IMG/VR virus record: IMGVR_UViG_3300045988_043442
Span: 1 to 56,396 of that record
Reading direction: 5' to 3' (one strand)
DNA: 56,396 nt
Source: a virus
The notes under the pieces were generated by a model. That model was not told where the DNA came from, did not search any database, and saw only the letters and a list, made by a program, of their open reading frames with translations. Numbering within the stretch: position 1 is the first letter of the stretch; each line of letters begins with the position of its first letter. The position numbers and the translations under genes are program-made. This document shows, one piece after another, positions 4,166-47,121 of this stretch.

Positions 4166-4975
4166 TTACAGGGTGTATTGCTTTTTGATTCGCTTAGCCC
4201 TGTTTTCACCTTTTTCATAAGGTTTAATATAAACGACCTTGCCGCTTTGATAATGCCGGAAATGTCCGCGGACTTCCCAACAGCCGGCAAGTCGTCGCGG
4301 TTTTTTGCTTTTTATTGCGTTAGCCGTCTTATTATTCGACACTTTAAATTTTATATTATTAATTTTAATTTCTTTTACGACATTATCAACATTTTTAATA
4401 TTTTCATCTTGCGAACTTTTAGCCTTTCTTGACTTTCTTCCTTTTCTTTCAACTTCCTTAATTTCCGGGTGTTCCAAAAGCCAATTAATCCAAGTCGTAG
4501 CACGAAAAAAGAAATTTAAACATTGTCCTGCTTGCGGAACAACATTGTCTTTATAAGCTGTAAGCTCTTCAAGCTTACGCTTTTGGCGATTAAAAATCAC
4601 TAATGTTGCATCGCTGTAATCTGTTATAACCAGCTTTAAATTCCGGTTGCAAGTAACCGGAATTTCGCAAGCAATTGAACATTTCCATAGCCATTTTTTA
4701 TAAAAGTTGTCGAAAATTTCAGCTTTTAAAATCAGCATATTTTCACTCACTTCGACATCAAAAATAAAACGCTCCTGAAAGTCGTTGTAATCGGCGATAA
4801 ACACGCCATTTTTTAGAATTGGGATGTATGTTAATACATCAGAATCTTTTATATTAGGAAACCAATTGGCGGAATCTTCAAATTTAGCGGTGATACTATC
4901 AAGATTTTCGCTCTTAGCGGCTAATTCACCGCCTTTTTGCTCTCGCAATAATTGTATTTGCTTTTCTGTTCGCAT
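4166..4975 (-). CDS. Hypothetical 269-aa protein with basic C-terminal region
   Basis: ORF abuts the upstream gene with no spacer. Has a K/R-rich linker and a CWEVRGHFRHYQSGKVVYIKPY tail. No family assigned. Confidence 0.7.
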   Translation of the reverse strand: MRTEKQIQLLREQKGGELAAKSENLDSITAKFEDSANWFPNIKDSDVLTYIPILKNGVFIADYNDFQERFIFDVEVSENMLILKAEIFDNFYKKWLWKCSIACEIPVTCNRNLKLVITDYSDATLVIFNRQKRKLEELTAYKDNVVPQAGQCLNFFFRATTWINWLLEHPEIKEVERKGRKSRKAKSSQDENIKNVDNVVKEIKINNIKFKVSNNKTANAIKSKKPRRLAGCWEVRGHFRHYQSGKVVYIKPYEKGENRAKRIKKQYTL

Positions 4976-5245
4976 TTAAAAGACCTCGTTCTCTTTTTCG
5001 TACAATTTGAGAAGCTCGATAGCCGGCATCTTTACAAGTTGCTCGCCCGGTTCCAATTCAAATTCAGTATCTTTATCATCCATAATAAAATTATAGTCCG
5101 TGTAAATTGTAACTCCATAACTTTTTTTAGTAATGACTTCAACTATTAAGTTGTTGCCAAATTCCGCAATATCCTGCTTTAATTCTTTTATTAAATCTGT
5201 GCACTCAAACGACACAGACAAACCCTCGCTATTTACAAACGCCAT
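4976..5245 (-). CDS. Hypothetical 89-aa acidic protein
   Basis: ATG (MAFVNSEG) lies behind AAAGGAG. A TATAAT-containing promoter region sits upstream. Confidence 0.6.
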   Translation of the reverse strand: MAFVNSEGLSVSFECTDLIKELKQDIAEFGNNLIVEVITKKSYGVTIYTDYNFIMDDKDTEFELEPGEQLVKMPAIELLKLYEKENEVF

Positions 5246-5287
5246 GTTTTTTCTCCTTTTCAACGTTTTTTGATTTTATTATACAAC

Positions 5288-5314
5288 AAAAAAGGCTACA
5301 TTTGTAGCCTTTTT
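5288..5314 (-). terminator. Bidirectional intrinsic terminator ending the ribozyme-containing operon
   Basis: GGCTAC / GTAGCC stem flanked by an A-run and a T-run. Confidence 0.75.
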
Positions 5315-5318
5315 ATAT

Positions 5319-5669
5319 TTATTTTTCCGCAAGCTGGGTTCTTTGCTTACTTAAATATTTATCTATTGCGTCACTCGCAAAGTCTTGCAAATCACACACT
5401 TCCATGTTGCCAGCATGGTCGAGCTTGACAAAATCCGCATATTGTGGATAGCCTGTCTTGAATTTATTCAAGGCGTTTTCATCCTCGCCGAATTCTCTTA
5501 CAAAGCCAGCGAATTCGTAGCAGAAATCTGAATACTCTTCATATATCTGCTCACATTCCTCAATACCAAGGAATGTTCCATCGTCATAGTCAATGACATC
5601 ATAGTCAATATAATTTGACACGTTGCAATTAAAACCCATGTCAAATATTTTTTTAATGTTTTCATTCAT
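5319..5669 (-). CDS. Very acidic 116-aa protein
   Basis: ATG (MNENIKK) lies behind GGAGG. Rich in Asp/Glu/Tyr/Phe. Confidence 0.65.
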   Translation of the reverse strand: MNENIKKIFDMGFNCNVSNYIDYDVIDYDDGTFLGIEECEQIYEEYSDFCYEFAGFVREFGEDENALNKFKTGYPQYADFVKLDHAGNMEVCDLQDFASDAIDKYLSKQRTQLAEK

Positions 5670-5715
5670 TGATTTAACCTCCATATATTTTAATTTTATC
5701 CCTTAAAAGGAAAAA

Positions 5716-5754
5716 CCGCCGCAGGGCGTTGAACCTTGCCGACCGCCTGAACGG
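5716..5754 (-). ncRNA. GC-rich structured element, weak tRNA acceptor/T-arm mimic (or weak terminator)
   Basis: Minus strand: CCGUU(C)-AGGCGGUCGG-CAAGG-UUCAACG-CCCUG-CGGCGG-UUUUU. Same architecture as 5989..6029 but with a mismatch and wobbles. Confidence 0.35.
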
Positions 5755-5765
5755 ATGACGAAAAA

Positions 5766-5963
5766 TTAAAATCCCATTTTTTCAATAAAATATCTATCTT
5801 TATCGTTCTGATTATTGATATAATTCTTCAATGGTTCTATTTCTTCACAAATTGCGAGTTGTTTAGCTCTCCAGCTCTGACAAGTACAGTTTTTTGTTAA
5901 TGGTTCTTTCACTATATATAATTCTTTGTAGTATAGTGCAAATATAAAAATACCACCTTTCAT
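5766..5963 (-). CDS. Hypothetical 65-aa protein
   Basis: AGAGGA RBS upstream. Lies in the operon. Confidence 0.55.
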   Translation of the reverse strand: MKGGIFIFALYYKELYIVKEPLTKNCTCQSWRAKQLAICEEIEPLKNYINNQNDKDRYFIEKMGF

Positions 5964-5988
5964 TTTTTATTGTCCTCTTATGAGGTAA

Positions 5989-6029
5989 AGCAAGCCGGGG
6001 AATCGAACCCCGGAAGCGCCAACCTTGCT
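5989..6029 (-). ncRNA. tRNA-like acceptor/T-arm minihelix
   Basis: Minus strand: AGCAAG-GUUGGCGCUU-CCGGGG-UUCGAUU-CCCCGG-CUUGCU. Canonical T-loop. 6+6 bp coaxial helices. Starts 1 nt after the upstream TAA. Confidence 0.55.
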
Positions 6030-6030
6030 A

Positions 6031-6483
6031 TTATATTGCTTCTTTTTCTTTGCTAATTTCTGCCGCAATTATTCCCTGCTCAATAAAATATCGTAATGCA
6101 CTATCGCCGAAGCGTTGTATATAATATTCTGCAAGCTCCGAAGTGCTGAAAGCTTCTAAGGCTGTGCCAACATCGCTATAAATTCCGCTGCATGTTTTAG
6201 TCCTATTTGCTAGTGCTTTATCAATAGGGCTTTTCGGCTCTTCCTCTTTAACTCCTACAAGCCTATCAGCTCGCATTGTTCTAGTGTGTTCGTTTCCGCT
6301 TTCGTCGGAAATAATAACGCATTTAACGCTTTTTCCGCTCTTGGTAGGCTCTACGCTTTTGACTGTGGAAGTGTAACCAAAATTCCAAACTGTAACCATT
6401 CCCGGCTTTAATTCTGCCGCCGGGATTGCTTTTTGTGGTGTGTGTATTCCTTGTAGTTTAATTGTTTTCATAATATCAACCAT
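6031..6483 (-). CDS. Hypothetical 150-aa protein (start may be Met5 at 6471)
   Basis: ORF in the operon. No family recognised. Confidence 0.65.
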   Translation of the reverse strand: MVDIMKTIKLQGIHTPQKAIPAAELKPGMVTVWNFGYTSTVKSVEPTKSGKSVKCVIISDESGNEHTRTMRADRLVGVKEEEPKSPIDKALANRTKTCSGIYSDVGTALEAFSTSELAEYYIQRFGDSALRYFIEQGIIAAEISKEKEAI

Positions 6484-6495
6484 CCTTTCATTGTG

Positions 6496-6558
6496 TGCCC
6501 TGTCTCATCGGTGCAGGTGGGGCAGTTCCTACAGACCGCCAGAAGTGGCGGTTTCGAC
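6496..6558 (-). ncRNA. Type II hammerhead ribozyme candidate with variant core (C at position 4)
   Basis: Minus strand: GUC-GAAAC-CGCCA-CUUC-UGGCG-GUC / UGUAGG-loop-CCUGCA-CCGAUGA-GAC-A-GGGCA. Loop I UGCCC pairs with GGGCA. Confidence 0.55.
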
Positions 6559-6782
6559 TATTTCACTTGTTCTAAAATCTGTATATATATAGACGGTTTC
6601 GATTCGTCAACCTCTTTATAGACGCATCCGTTATATACTTTATTTGTTGACCCTTTGCAGGACTTGCCAAAACTCTTGCAGTTGTAGCACATTGGGTTAT
6701 ACTCCAATGCTTCAATGGCTTTTTTGCGTGCCTTGCTTCTTTCTATCTGTTCATTTGTTACAACCATTATATATTTTTCCAT
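6558..6782 (-). CDS. Hypothetical Cys-containing 74-aa protein
   Basis: ATG (MEKYIMVV) lies 8 nt behind GAGG. Confidence 0.6.
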   Translation of the reverse strand: MEKYIMVVTNEQIERSKARKKAIEALEYNPMCYNCKSFGKSCKGSTNKVYNGCVYKEVDESKPSIYIQILEQVK

Positions 6783-6805
6783 GTTCAAAACCTCGCTTTC
6801 GTTTT

Positions 6806-6871
6806 ATGGTCTGCCATCATCAGAGCCGGGAGACCATCCCACGGCTGACGCTCCAGGCGGAGCGTTTCGGC
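6806..6871 (-). ncRNA. Type II hammerhead ribozyme candidate
   Basis: Minus strand: GCC-GAAAC-GCUCC-GCCU-GGAGC-GUC / stem I hairpin-CUGAUGA-U-GGC-A-GACCAU. Loop I AUGGUC pairs with GACCAU. Confidence 0.65.
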
Positions 6872-7140
6872 TATGCTATTCTAACAACTGCATTTTTGAT
6901 ATTTGAGAAGTGAAAAAATTCCTTAGTCTCAATATTTTCAAATATTGCAGATTGTGCAAAGGTTTCGAGTGGCGTAAACGCATCACCCTTGCATGTGTAC
7001 GGGCTTTTTTCTGTATTCCAGTCAATTCCAAGTTTTCCGTTTTTCTCGTACACGCAAAAAGTCTTGTCATAGTTTCTAGTTCGTATCTCCCTATTGCTTG
7101 AATCGTATAAATGTACTTTGATTGTATCGTTTGCTTTCAT
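6871..7140 (-). CDS. Hypothetical 89-aa protein
   Basis: ORF in the operon. Its TAG stop contributes to hammerhead stem II. Confidence 0.6.
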   Translation of the reverse strand: MKANDTIKVHLYDSSNREIRTRNYDKTFCVYEKNGKLGIDWNTEKSPYTCKGDAFTPLETFAQSAIFENIETKEFFHFSNIKNAVVRIA

Positions 7141-7158
7141 ATTTAAGCCCTCTCTTTC

Positions 7159-7299
7159 TTATCTGTTTACTATTTCGTAAATCTGTGCTAATTTGCAATA
7201 TTCTTCGCATTCTGCTTGCTTCGGGCACTTGGAGCAATCATTTTCGTAAGTGCCGCAAACCTTTTCGAGTTCCTTTTCTAATTCTTTAATTCTTTCCAT
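7159..7299 (-). CDS. Hypothetical 46-aa Cys-rich protein (first cistron)
   Basis: MERIKELEKE...CSKCPKQAECEEYC. The longer track ORF reads through promoter DNA. Confidence 0.4.
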   Translation of the reverse strand: MERIKELEKELEKVCGTYENDCSKCPKQAECEEYCKLAQIYEIVNR

Positions 7300-7416
7300 A
7301 TTCTTGTACCATTTCGCCGACTGTGTTATAATCGGCTTACCTTTCTTTTTTTGATTGGTGGCGGTTCGTTCTTGGTAGGAGTGACCGCCTTTTTGTATGT
7401 CCTCCTGACAGTTATT

Positions 7417-7445
7417 ATAATAAACTAAAAACAGTTTAAAGTCAA
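7417..7445 (-). promoter_or_regulatory. Leftward sigma-70-type promoter
   Basis: Minus strand: TTGACT, 17 nt, TATTAT (overlapping a TATAAT). Confidence 0.6.
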
Positions 7446-7479
7446 TAGATAAAATAAACTTTTTTAAGATTATTTTTTG

Positions 7480-7508
7480 TTGACAAAACGAGTAAAAAAA
7501 GCTACTAT
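7480..7508 (+). promoter_or_regulatory. Rightward promoter
   Basis: TTGACA, 17 nt, TACTAT. Back-to-back with the leftward promoter. Confidence 0.6.
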
Positions 7509-7539
7509 ATATTGTATAAAACAATGAGGAGGTAACAAA

Positions 7540-7746
7540 ATGCTTGTATATAAAATTAACGTGCTGGAATCTTTAAAAGAGAGTGGATACAACAGCACAA
7601 GGATATTAAAAGAGGGGCTAATAAGTCAATCAGCAATGCAGAGGTTGCGAAAAAATGAAATGATTGGCATTAAAACTTTGGAAAAGCTGTGCGAACTTTT
7701 AGATATGCAGCCGGGAAATATCATTAAATATGTAGAAAAAGATTGA
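7540..7746 (+). CDS. Small XRE/Cro-type HTH regulator
   Basis: GAGGAGG RBS. The 68-aa pattern GYNSTRILKEGLISQSAMQRLRKNE...LEKLCELL is typical of Cro/C1 HTH. Confidence 0.65.
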   Translation: MLVYKINVLESLKESGYNSTRILKEGLISQSAMQRLRKNEMIGIKTLEKLCELLDMQPGNIIKYVEKD

Positions 7747-7769
7747 ACCAAAAAAGATTTAAAAAAGTA

Positions 7770-7798
7770 TTGACAATAAACGATAAATGGTTTATTAT
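7770..7798 (+). promoter_or_regulatory. Promoter
   Basis: TTGACA, 17 nt, TATTAT. Confidence 0.55.
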
Positions 7799-7848
7799 AA
7801 TGGTAGAAACAAAGAAAGGGCAGCCGCAAAGGCTGGATGGTTGAAAGG

Positions 7849-10557: not shown

Positions 10558-10653
10558 TATTTAATGCCGTGTCTGACCAATGCGTATAAATGGCTACAAA
10601 GAATAGTACACTGCGGCAGTGATGAATATATGTCAGAGAATAAATCACAATTT

Positions 10654-11097: not shown

Positions 11098-11238
11098 TGG
11101 TGTGTATGCAAGTGGGTAAGCAACGTGTAGCTGGTAACAAACATATATTTAAAAATGTTTGAGCCGTGCTTATGGGTTTAATTCTCAAAAACGTAAGGAC
11201 GTATGTCTTATGTGCGGTTCGATTCCGCACCACATCAA
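11098..11238 (+). ncRNA. Split tRNA-like RNA: acceptor plus D-arm, about 90-nt insert, then T-arm plus acceptor
   Basis: UGGUGUG pairs with CACAUCA, including a G:U. D-arm-like UGC-AAGUGGGUAA-GCA. T-arm GUGCGG-UUCGAUU-CCGCAC. Discriminator A. Confidence 0.4.
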
Positions 11239-11360
11239 TTACAACAAACTAGGTTAGCTACCGAAAAGCACTTCCGCTGTGCCTGTTTGTTGTTTTTATC
11301 AATTAAGCGGAGTATGTATCACAGGCATACATAAATAATATCAAGCGGAGGTATTCAATT

Positions 11361-46366: not shown

Positions 46367-47121
46367 ATGTACTTAAAATGTTTAGGCTCATCGTCAGCCG
46401 GAAATTGCTATCTGCTAACTTCCAACAGTGGAGAAACACTTATCCTTGATTGTGGGATACCGATTAAGGAGATTAAAAAAGGCTTGAATTGGCACATAAG
46501 GGGGATAAAGGGTGTGATTATAAGTCACACCCACCTACCCTAGACCACAGCAAGTCATTAAACGATTTTAAATCAATGGGAATACCGATTTATGCACCAT
46601 ATATACAATACGCACAACACGAGGGCATACATCGTTATCACACGATACCATTTAGCAGCTTTAAAGTTAAGGCATTTGACCTAACAACAATAGATGGGAG
46701 CTGGACACACACAGACGCAAACGGCGAACCTTGCCCGATATATGGCTTTCTGATTACTCACAAGGAAATGGGAAGAATGCTTTATATAACCGATTGTGAA
46801 CTAATCAAATGGAGATTTAAAGACATAAACCACATTCTCTTAGGTGTGAATTATGACAAGGATTTAATTGACAGGGATAATACAGGCAAAGCTAATCACG
46901 TTTTCAGAGGTCATTTATCCATTGACACGGCTTGCGATTTTGTTAAGGCAAATTATTCAGATAGTTTGCAGAACGTCATAATGTGCCATCTATCAAGTGA
47001 AAATGCTGATAGAGATAGTTTTATCGAGAAGATGAAAAAAGTTGCTTGTGGGGCGAATGTGGACGTTGCGGTAGCAGGGAAAAGTTGGGATTTGAAAAAT
47101 CCTAGCGAATGTCCGTTTTAG
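46367..47121 (+). pseudogene. MBL-fold metallo-hydrolase interrupted by a 5-nt insertion in the HxHxDH motif
   Basis: Frame A: MYLKCLGSSSAGNCYLL...VIISHTHLP-stop at 46541. Frame B continues LDHSKSLNDF... Removing CTACC restores SHTHLDHS. Confidence 0.7.

Follow-up and report, generated by a model that had tools for sequence, protein, structure and literature searches.

Structured RNAs in four spacers of a small-gene operon

Positions 5,288 to 7,445 of a temperate phage genome (IMG/VR record IMGVR_UViG_3300045988_043442, positions 1 to 56,396; this whole 56,396-nucleotide stretch, 56 kb with 37% GC, is called the window) encode six small proteins, P1 to P6, on the minus strand, and four consecutive spacers between their genes each hold a structured RNA. 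Spacers 1 and 2 (6870..6783 and 6557..6484) contain the type II hammerheads HH1 and HH2, and spacers 3 and 4 (6030..5964 and 5765..5670) contain the tRNA-like minihelices TL1 and TL2, which imitate the acceptor stem and T-arm of a tRNA. The same kinds of element, with compensatory base changes, recur at the gene junctions of related phages. The features of the locus are, in the direction of transcription (nt, nucleotides; bp, base pairs; aa, amino acids; ORF, open reading frame):

7417..7445, minus strand: sigma-70-like promoter-like site, TTGACT-17-TATTAT (consensus scan, 10 of 12 matches)
7316..7389, minus strand: structured leader with two hairpins (conserved and covarying)
7159..7299, minus strand: P1, 46 aa, Cys-rich, no family; start codon uncertain, a good Shine-Dalgarno sequence being absent
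6871..7140, minus strand: P2, 89 aa, no family (ORF)
6805..6872, minus strand: HH1, canonical type II hammerhead (Rfam RF02276, Hammerhead_II, 63.3 bits against a gathering threshold of 37, E 8e-11 for the whole window)
6558..6782, minus strand: P3, 74 aa, with only a weak match, to a PHROG of unknown function (ORF)
6494..6559, minus strand: HH2, type II hammerhead variant with C at core position 4 (C6510) (full-length alignment to RF02276, 28.5 bits)
6031..6471, minus strand: P4, 146 aa, no family (ORF)
5989..6029, minus strand: TL1, 41-nt tRNA-like minihelix (minimum-free-energy fold, covariance model R1, covariation)
5974..5985, minus strand: small hairpin CCUC-AUAA-GAGG, 3 nt after TL1 (single-sequence folding)
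5766..5963, minus strand: P5, 65 aa, no family (ORF)
5714..5756, minus strand: TL2, tRNA-like minihelix of type e (homologues, fold energies)
5319..5669, minus strand: P6, 116 aa, acidic, no family (ORF)
5289..5314, minus strand: intrinsic-terminator-like hairpin, 11 bp plus U-run (consensus scan)

A preliminary description made from the letters of the sequence had proposed hammerhead folds in the first two spacers and tRNA acceptor/T-arm mimics in the last two, and both assignments held: HH1 by its score, HH2 and the mimics by covariation within their families, the spacer 4 copy being imperfect and chimeric. A lack of conservation or covariation of the spacer structures in homologous operons had been listed there among the refuting observations; covariation was found for the HH2 family and the tRNA-like family alike. 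The spacers, described as GC-rich in an AT-rich genome, have structured cores of 61-65% GC, against 27-41% for the coding sequences and 37% for the window. As also described, three of the four elements start inside the upstream stop codon or 1 nt after it (HH1 within that of P2, HH2 within that of P3, and TL1 1 nt past that of P4), the exception being TL2, which begins 9 nt past the upstream stop codon. The statement that the six proteins lack a recognisable family was confirmed by searches of Pfam, PHROGs, NCBIfam and PDB sequences, which gave no match except the weak one of P3; of the statement that one of them is extremely acidic, the acidity stands (P6 has an isoelectric point, pI, of 4.1 and 26 Asp plus Glu among its 116 residues) and "extremely" is overstated. 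A search of 5.8 billion proteins returned nine relatives of P6, all unannotated, and the N-terminal ~74 aa of P4 are common to many relatives whose C-termini differ.

Relatives were collected with a P4 protein search, which yielded 69 IMG/VR loci, and with a pattern for the type-a element, the kind with the TL1 stem set, which yielded at least 119 more (loci are cited below by L numbers). The related contigs are mostly ~57 kb long and come from human-gut-type metagenomes, and distant P4 relatives sit in Bacillota/Oscillospiraceae assemblies. Recurrence of the gene and spacer arrangement in related phages, which the preliminary description had put forward as a further check, was observed: junction elements recur among the 69 IMG/VR loci, and hammerheads in two deposited phages.

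Hammerheads of spacers 1 and 2

The two ribozymes were compared with the consensus core C3 U4 G5 A6 N7 G8 A9, G12 A13 A14, A15.1-U16.1 and H17. HH1 has the full consensus core (CUGAUGA at 6823..6817), a predicted cut between C6847 and A6846, and a pseudoknot in which loop I pairs with the 3' tail over 7 bp without mismatch, AUGGUCU (6837..6831) with AGACCAU (6812..6806), read from the sequence. HH2 surfaced only when spacer 2 was searched alone and was missed by wider searches. It is laid out as an open stem II, GUC/GAC, to which the P3 stop codon contributes its G, then GAAA, a 7-bp stem III, C17 at 6534, a 6-bp stem I and a 5-bp pseudoknot, UGCCC (6524..6520) with GGGCA (6500..6496), likewise read from the sequence; the predicted cut lies between C6534 and U6533. 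Searches for other ribozyme classes (twister, pistol, hatchet, hepatitis delta virus-like) gave zero hits in the operon at E<=10.

Related phages carry 55 distinct copies of the HH2 lineage, of which 27 have C and 27 have U at position 4, and this split spans several stem III and stem I backgrounds with the other core bases conserved. Individual exceptions occur: L001 also carries G12A, GUU replaces the GUC of stem II in L022 and L096, and in L119 position 17, at the cleavage site, is a U. In the HH2 family alignment (29 sequences), 94.9% of cells are paired and seven pairs show compensatory change, in stems III and I, compared with 27-46% pairing in slide controls. A half-and-half distribution of C4 and U4 on several backgrounds, together with a covarying fold, argues that C4 is a maintained polymorphism and not decay; no description of such a U4/C4 polymorphism was found in the literature searched.

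tRNA-like minihelices of spacers 3 and 4

TL1 reads AGCAAG, a 10-nt linker (GUUGGCGCUU), CCGGGG UUCGAUU CCCCGG and CUUGCU, in which a 6-bp acceptor-like stem stacks on a 6-bp T-stem, 12 bp in all, capped by a canonical T-loop. This fold is the minimum-free-energy structure (-16.9 kcal/mol) and scores 70 bits with R1, a covariance model built from 13 copies and specific to types a and b. The T-arm motif of TL1, GGTTCGATTCC, satisfies the consensus GGTTCRANYCC. TL1 is not a tRNA: ARAGORN and Rfam detect just the tRNAs at 10653 and 10939, and none in 5000..7800 at E<=10. The only Rfam family that aligns to it (5989..6029) is mascRNA-menRNA, RF01684, at 18.2 bits against a threshold of 42.5, a resemblance of shape and not membership. 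The GAGG of the small hairpin that follows TL1 is likely the Shine-Dalgarno sequence of P5, and relatives have equivalent small hairpins, with other stem sequences, 3' of their type-a elements.

TL2 reads AUCCGUU, CAGGCGGUCG, GCAAGG UUCAACG CCCUGC and GGCGGUU, and its T-arm motif, GGTTCAACGCC, deviates from GGTTCRANYCC at the Y position. A clean homologue lies in L116 (at 7134; AUCCGUU, CAGGCGGUCG, GCAGGG-UUCGAAU-CCCUGC, GACGGAU), with more in L028 and L111. The 3' strand and tail of TL2 (GGCGGUUUUUCCUUUUAAGGGAUAA) match element X, the occupant of the homologous junction in many relatives. The spacer 4 element is real but chimeric, a weaker member of the family.

Element X itself is found at L012 4524-4583, L001 ~4680-4730, L034 6317-6386 and ~25 other loci, at the junction homologous to spacer 4. 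It consists of an outer stem CCGCC/GGCGG, a small hairpin GCA-GAGGA-UGC, a 6-bp hairpin with a 7-nt loop, a U-run and AAGGG. The L012 copy aligns full length, if weakly, to int-alpA (RF02996; 18.5 bits against a threshold of 35.8); an int-alpA search of 5660..6040 in the window was empty at E<=10.

A loose minihelix detector is expected to give 0.29 hits per shuffled window, a chance rate at which the weight of the tRNA-mimic case is comparative and does not come from the single sequence; folding z-scores of single sequences are weak for all spacers (-0.2 to -1.8). R1 finds the element in more than 60 loci, and in the oriented loci L001-L066 all hits, strong ones included, lie on the operon strand. 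The R1-based alignment has 98.8% of cells paired and compensatory changes in 10 of 12 pairs, against 37-57% pairing in slide controls. Types c, e and f are barely detected by R1 even with filters off. By direct inspection, the family comprises at least six types with unrelated stem sequences and a shared architecture, on more than 119 metagenomic phage contigs:

Type a: AGCAAG/CUUGCU, the TL1 stem set
Type b: GCUUGC/GCAAGC
Type c: UUCGCGU/GCGCGGA, with a mini D-arm within a 14-nt linker
Type e: the TL2 type
Type f: AGCGGU/GCCGCU, with a covarying T-stem (ACAGGG, ACAUGG, ACAAGG) and a 17-nt linker
Further types: several singletons

MAFFT misaligns the unrelated 5' strands when all types are combined, and pairs were counted on linker-excised stems instead; these sets were preselected for pairing and are 100% paired by construction, which leaves covariation as the only evidence in them. 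Across 32 distinct stem sets, ten positions each show 3-6 pair types, and the two loop-closing G-C pairs and the T-loop UUC-A are invariant, as in tRNA. Of the T-arm-like hairpins that do not belong to real tRNAs, 74% adjoin a helix of 6 bp or more; with the upstream 30 nt shuffled, the share is 18%, and within real tRNAs it is 19%. The stacked helix is 12 bp long in 70 of 122 copies and 13 bp in 44; position N-1 is U in 82 of these copies, and none encodes a CCA. In 23 of 44 distinct contexts, the element starts between -2 and +1 nt from a stop codon. The family is absent from Rfam 15 and from the literature searched, which is not proof that it is undescribed. Type f (L079 9957-10007, L107, L112 and L123) is found ~6 kb away from the type-a element, on the other strand, placing the family outside the leftward operon as well.

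Junction elements in related phages

Of the 69 related loci, most carry type II hammerheads at equivalent junctions. At the junction before P4, HH1-type and HH2-type hammerheads interchange, and some relatives have no element there. In L116, successive spacers hold three tRNA-like elements, and in relatives hairpins flank types b and c on both sides. The type-a element joins 17 upstream to 32 downstream sequence clusters in 65 combinations, which places it exactly at cassette-exchange points. Judged from these neighbours, the elements appear to be gene-independent and to mark the boundaries of exchanged gene cassettes. A mobile miniature element was considered and rejected, as a genome holds only one copy of each type and the relative position of that copy is fixed.

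In L012 (4883-5017), and in equivalents in ~20 loci, a type-b element stands between two terminator-like hairpins at the operon end with no gene immediately downstream. These copies resemble a free-standing small RNA more than a signal at a junction.

Among deposited phage genomes, the HH1 sequence is the only shared element and TL1 is found in none. In the gut phages Dulem virus 39 (L195, PP511791.1, 4498-5097) and MT835516.1 (L194, ~5000-5075), a small-gene operon likewise faces away from a Cro/C1 gene and carries one or two type II hammerheads that begin at stop codons; tRNA-like elements are absent, and no annotation exists there.

Leader, operon bounds and neighbouring features

The promoter-like site is divergent from a Cro/C1-type helix-turn-helix gene at 7540..7746 on the plus strand (HTH_26 domain, E 1e-8). 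By consensus matches only, this site and the terminator-like hairpin are the putative bounds of a ~2.1-kb minus-strand unit, and the consensus scan gave no further promoter-like sites on the minus strand of the operon interior. The leader consists of the hairpin GGCGGU/ACCGCC (7389..7360), ACCAAUCAAAAAAAGAAAGG and a second hairpin GCCGA/UCGGC (7336..7316), and is kept in ~15 related loci; an alignment of 10 sequences has 96% of cells paired and four pairs with compensatory change (slide controls 19-55%). The sequence ACCA (7356..7359, minus strand) lies directly 3' of the first leader hairpin, within the invariant ACCAAUCAAAAAAGAAAGG, and hairpin and ACCA together resemble a hairpin substrate of RNase P with its RCCA end. 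In L007, this leader sits 3' of a hammerhead.

Beyond the terminator, two more minus-strand genes (4166..5263) encode P7 (89 aa, pI 4.2) and a protein of 269 aa that matches phrog_10678; TATAAT occurs without mismatch just past the terminator (~5284-5290), and the two genes may form a separate unit. Elsewhere, the window encodes an integrase, an antirepressor, SSB, RecT, a methylase and two tRNAs. A comparison of 29 window ORFs with Pfam (9 in or beside the operon, 20 elsewhere) revealed no RNA-repair or RNase gene, save for a weak metallo-beta-lactamase-fold match (21.4 bits, below cut-off) at 46489..47121 on the plus strand, in the replication/recombination module; its product is more likely a recombination-associated nuclease than an RNase Z or RNase J, which share that fold.

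An int-alpA RNA passes threshold at 11242..11308, with a T-arm-like hairpin directly upstream (11212..11240, plus strand; GUGCGG-UUCGAUU-CCGCAC plus CACAUCAAU). A related piece, GUGUGG UUCAAAU CCACAC CACAUCAA, is found in eight other loci. In L091, L116, L158 and L160, a full tRNA ends 3-4 nt upstream of int-alpA, and three of these four carry the CACAUCAA piece elsewhere in the locus. For the piece at 11212..11240, candidate identities are a truncated tRNA, a tRNA 3' half of attP type and a further processing signal.

Transcript processing and its alternatives

The structures, their conservation and covariation, their strand, their position at stop codons and their interchangeability between junctions are observed; from them we infer the cleavage events, the enzymes acting on the minihelices and any effect on mRNA stability or translation, which together make a plausible mechanism. 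The model that we favor, with a probability of roughly one half, is that the transcript is punctuated and cut at its junctions by hammerheads together with host tRNA-end enzymes. The leftward accessory-gene operon of a temperate phage of gut Bacillota would thus give a primary transcript carrying a modular RNA-processing element at every gene junction. HH1 and HH2 would cut themselves just 3' of the preceding stop codon, HH2 probably more slowly on account of C4, leaving an upstream mRNA closed by the stem III hairpin and bearing a 2',3'-cyclic phosphate, and a downstream mRNA that starts without overhang in the stem I hairpin with a 5'-OH. TL1 and TL2, which have no catalytic core, would mimic the signals of host tRNA-end enzymes through a 12-13-bp acceptor/T helix, a canonical T-loop and the lack of an encoded CCA; this mimicry suggests that RNase P may cleave at the 5' border of each element and/or RNase Z at the 3' border. 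The logic would be that of mitochondrial tRNA punctuation and plant mitochondrial t-elements, and the generic, gene-independent elements would also mark the boundaries at which related phages exchange cassettes.

Several precedents are consistent with this model. CCA-less precursors are RNase Z substrates in Bacillota. The tRNA genes of the phage lie between protein genes on one strand, and host RNase P and RNase Z are therefore expected to cut phage mRNAs there too. [quoted passage not shown] Plant mitochondrial t-elements, whose T-arm motif is GGTTCRANYCC, coincide with mapped mRNA ends and are taken to direct RNase P and RNase Z cuts (PMC1920247). For hammerhead clusters that flank prophage genes, 2-kb transcripts undergo cleavage in vitro at each of their ribozymes, and cleavage of one set also occurs in E. 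coli; the role proposed by the authors was processing into gene-length mRNAs (PMC3088659). The presence of tRNA mimics and ribozymes at equivalent junctions of one operon argues that their shared job is to make defined RNA ends.

A number of observations weigh against the model. HH2 scores below the RF02276 gathering threshold and departs from the consensus core (CCGAUGA instead of CUGAUGA, the remaining core bases all being present). Substitutions of U4 strongly lower the activity of minimal hammerheads, from which HH2 cleavage is expected to be slowed by C4; with its non-consensus core base, HH2 may be slow or conditional. The 7+6-bp stack of TL2 (13 positions) contains two mismatches, U.U in the acceptor stem and A.C in the T-stem, its fold (-11.4 kcal/mol) is about isoenergetic with an alternative (-12.5 kcal/mol), and 3' of it a run of five U's followed by an int-alpA-like tail is terminator-like. 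An RNase P cut at TL1 would end the P4 message 1 nt past its stop codon, unprotected, and so looks harmful rather than protective. The preliminary description had each cistron protected by a hairpin, which fits the hammerheads (stem III on one side, stem I on the other) and fails at TL1, where the end of the P4 mRNA would be bare. In L012, the junction before P4 has no element, and relatives of this kind suggest that processing is dispensable for expression. In L023 (3868-4000), a tRNA-like element and a type II hammerhead stand in tandem, 9 nt apart, in the spacer before the P4 homologue, which indicates that the two are not simple substitutes. Finally, most related loci belong to one metagenome project and one phage lineage, and represent fewer independent evolutionary events than the counts suggest.

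The doubts about TL2 bear on a different explanation, which we consider unlikely but worth weighing seriously: the tRNA-like elements may stay uncut and act in cis, as GC-rich roadblocks or insulators against 3' exonucleases, by uncoupling cistrons, or as leaky terminators that grade expression through a U-run of the TL2 type. Both TL2 and element X of the relatives end in GGCGGUUUUU, the T-arm of TL1 was itself flagged as terminator-like in the terminator scan, elements of types b and c adjoin terminator-like hairpins in relatives, and the hairpin after TL1 sequesters the next Shine-Dalgarno sequence. The spacer 4 element could equally be a leaky terminator, but the hairpin preceding GGCGGUUUUU is broken by a 10-nt bulge and the terminator scan made no call there. 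For such roles, however, a plain hairpin would suffice, which leaves unexplained the strict T-loop UUCRANN, the invariant closing G-C and the 12-13 bp kept across unrelated sequences, and the U-run is missing from most type-a copies.

The variety of neighbours joined by the type-a element (65 combinations of its upstream and downstream clusters) also fits a role in DNA, in which short conserved boundary sequences would serve cassette recombination as homology patches or attC-like sites, with the RNA folds secondary. The chimeric TL2, whose 3' half comes from another element, agrees with this, and motifs in consecutive spacers have previously been read as attC-like (the DUF1874 motif, PMC5737381). 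We regard this as distinctly improbable as a sole explanation, because compensatory changes in wholly different sequences indicate selection on the fold and not on sequence homology, copies in the oriented loci are all on the transcribed strand, and the sister junctions hold hammerheads, which are RNA devices; a DNA role is in any case compatible with transcript processing and does not exclude it.

There is only a slim chance that the elements work chiefly as excised 41-47-nt RNAs acting in trans, as decoys or inhibitors of host factors that bind acceptor/T domains. mascRNA is released as a stable small RNA. t-Elements, too, are released as stable small RNAs (PMC1920247), and the type-b element between two terminators at the operon end of relatives has no gene to serve. 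Against this, no target is known, the freely varying acceptor sequences fit a shape signal better than a specific decoy, and the tight placement at stop codons suggests a role in cis. A broader combination, of hammerheads, minihelices and int-alpA-like elements as one cassette system with defined mRNA ends, whose excised mini-tRNAs would be CCA-tailed and act in trans on acceptor/T-binding host factors (tRNA-targeting defence toxins, tRNA-end enzymes), is likewise improbable in our view.

Two further origins are most improbable: decaying remnants of phage tRNA genes, to which the real tRNA genes of the phage and the truncated T-arm-like piece at 11212..11240 might point, are at odds with perfect 12-bp helices kept through compensatory changes, and an undescribed class of self-cleaving ribozyme travelling with hammerheads, as new classes have been found by their closeness to hammerheads (PMC5737381), would lack a candidate catalytic core, since no nucleotide outside the T-loop is conserved across types.

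Relation to known systems and significance

That the ribozymes alone are not novel, as the preliminary description had stated, is correct, prophage-gene-flanking hammerhead clusters having been published (Perreault et al. 2011, PMC3088659). Those ribozymes are also of type II with a loop I/3'-tail pseudoknot, lie between small, variable and mostly unknown prophage genes, and have the same proposed role of cutting polycistronic RNA into gene-length pieces, with cleavage observed in vitro there and predicted here. They differ from the present operon in that tRNA mimics occupy two of its four junctions and in that C4 occurs in half of one lineage, a variant on which the core-variant text of that paper is silent. 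For the combination of hammerheads and tRNA mimics, which the preliminary description took to be new, no description was found in the literature searched.

The plant mitochondrial t-elements of the tRNA punctuation model (Forner et al. 2007, PMC1920247) share with the phage elements non-canonical tRNA-like folds, the GGTTCRANYCC motif and a placement at mRNA ends, sometimes against or inside a reading frame; unlike them, they are organellar, ~74 nt long and mostly cloverleaf-like, with mapped ends, whereas the phage elements are 41-47 nt, have no anticodon arm, are mixed with ribozymes and are known from sequence. mascRNA/MEN-beta is similarly an acceptor and T-arm mimic inside a longer transcript, cut by tRNA-end enzymes, but is vertebrate and nuclear. 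Model RNase P hairpin substrates (McClain, Altman and others; PMC11143913) have the same acceptor stem stacked on a T-stem and T-loop; they are synthetic and usually end in 3' RCCA, whereas the phage elements lack CCA and carry, on the 5' side, a bulge of 4-17 nt. The int-alpA motif occurs in the same phages and is aligned by element X over its full length, and TL2 retains the 3' strand of X and the UUUUUCCUUUUAAGGG tail; the sub-threshold score of X and the empty search of spacer 4 set them apart.

We conclude that the feature is real, and that tRNA-punctuated processing, a known principle, is a plausible mechanism for it in a phage. The role of bacterial and phage hammerheads is still called unresolved (PMC6765202), and these phages offer matched natural variants: hammerheads with U4 or C4, and junctions that have an element, have a different one or have none. 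As compact, context-independent insulators, the elements would correspond to parts that synthetic biologists assemble by hand. If RNase P and RNase Z cut here, an abundant gut-phage RNA family would join the known structured RNAs, and tRNA punctuation would extend from organelles to bacteriophage.

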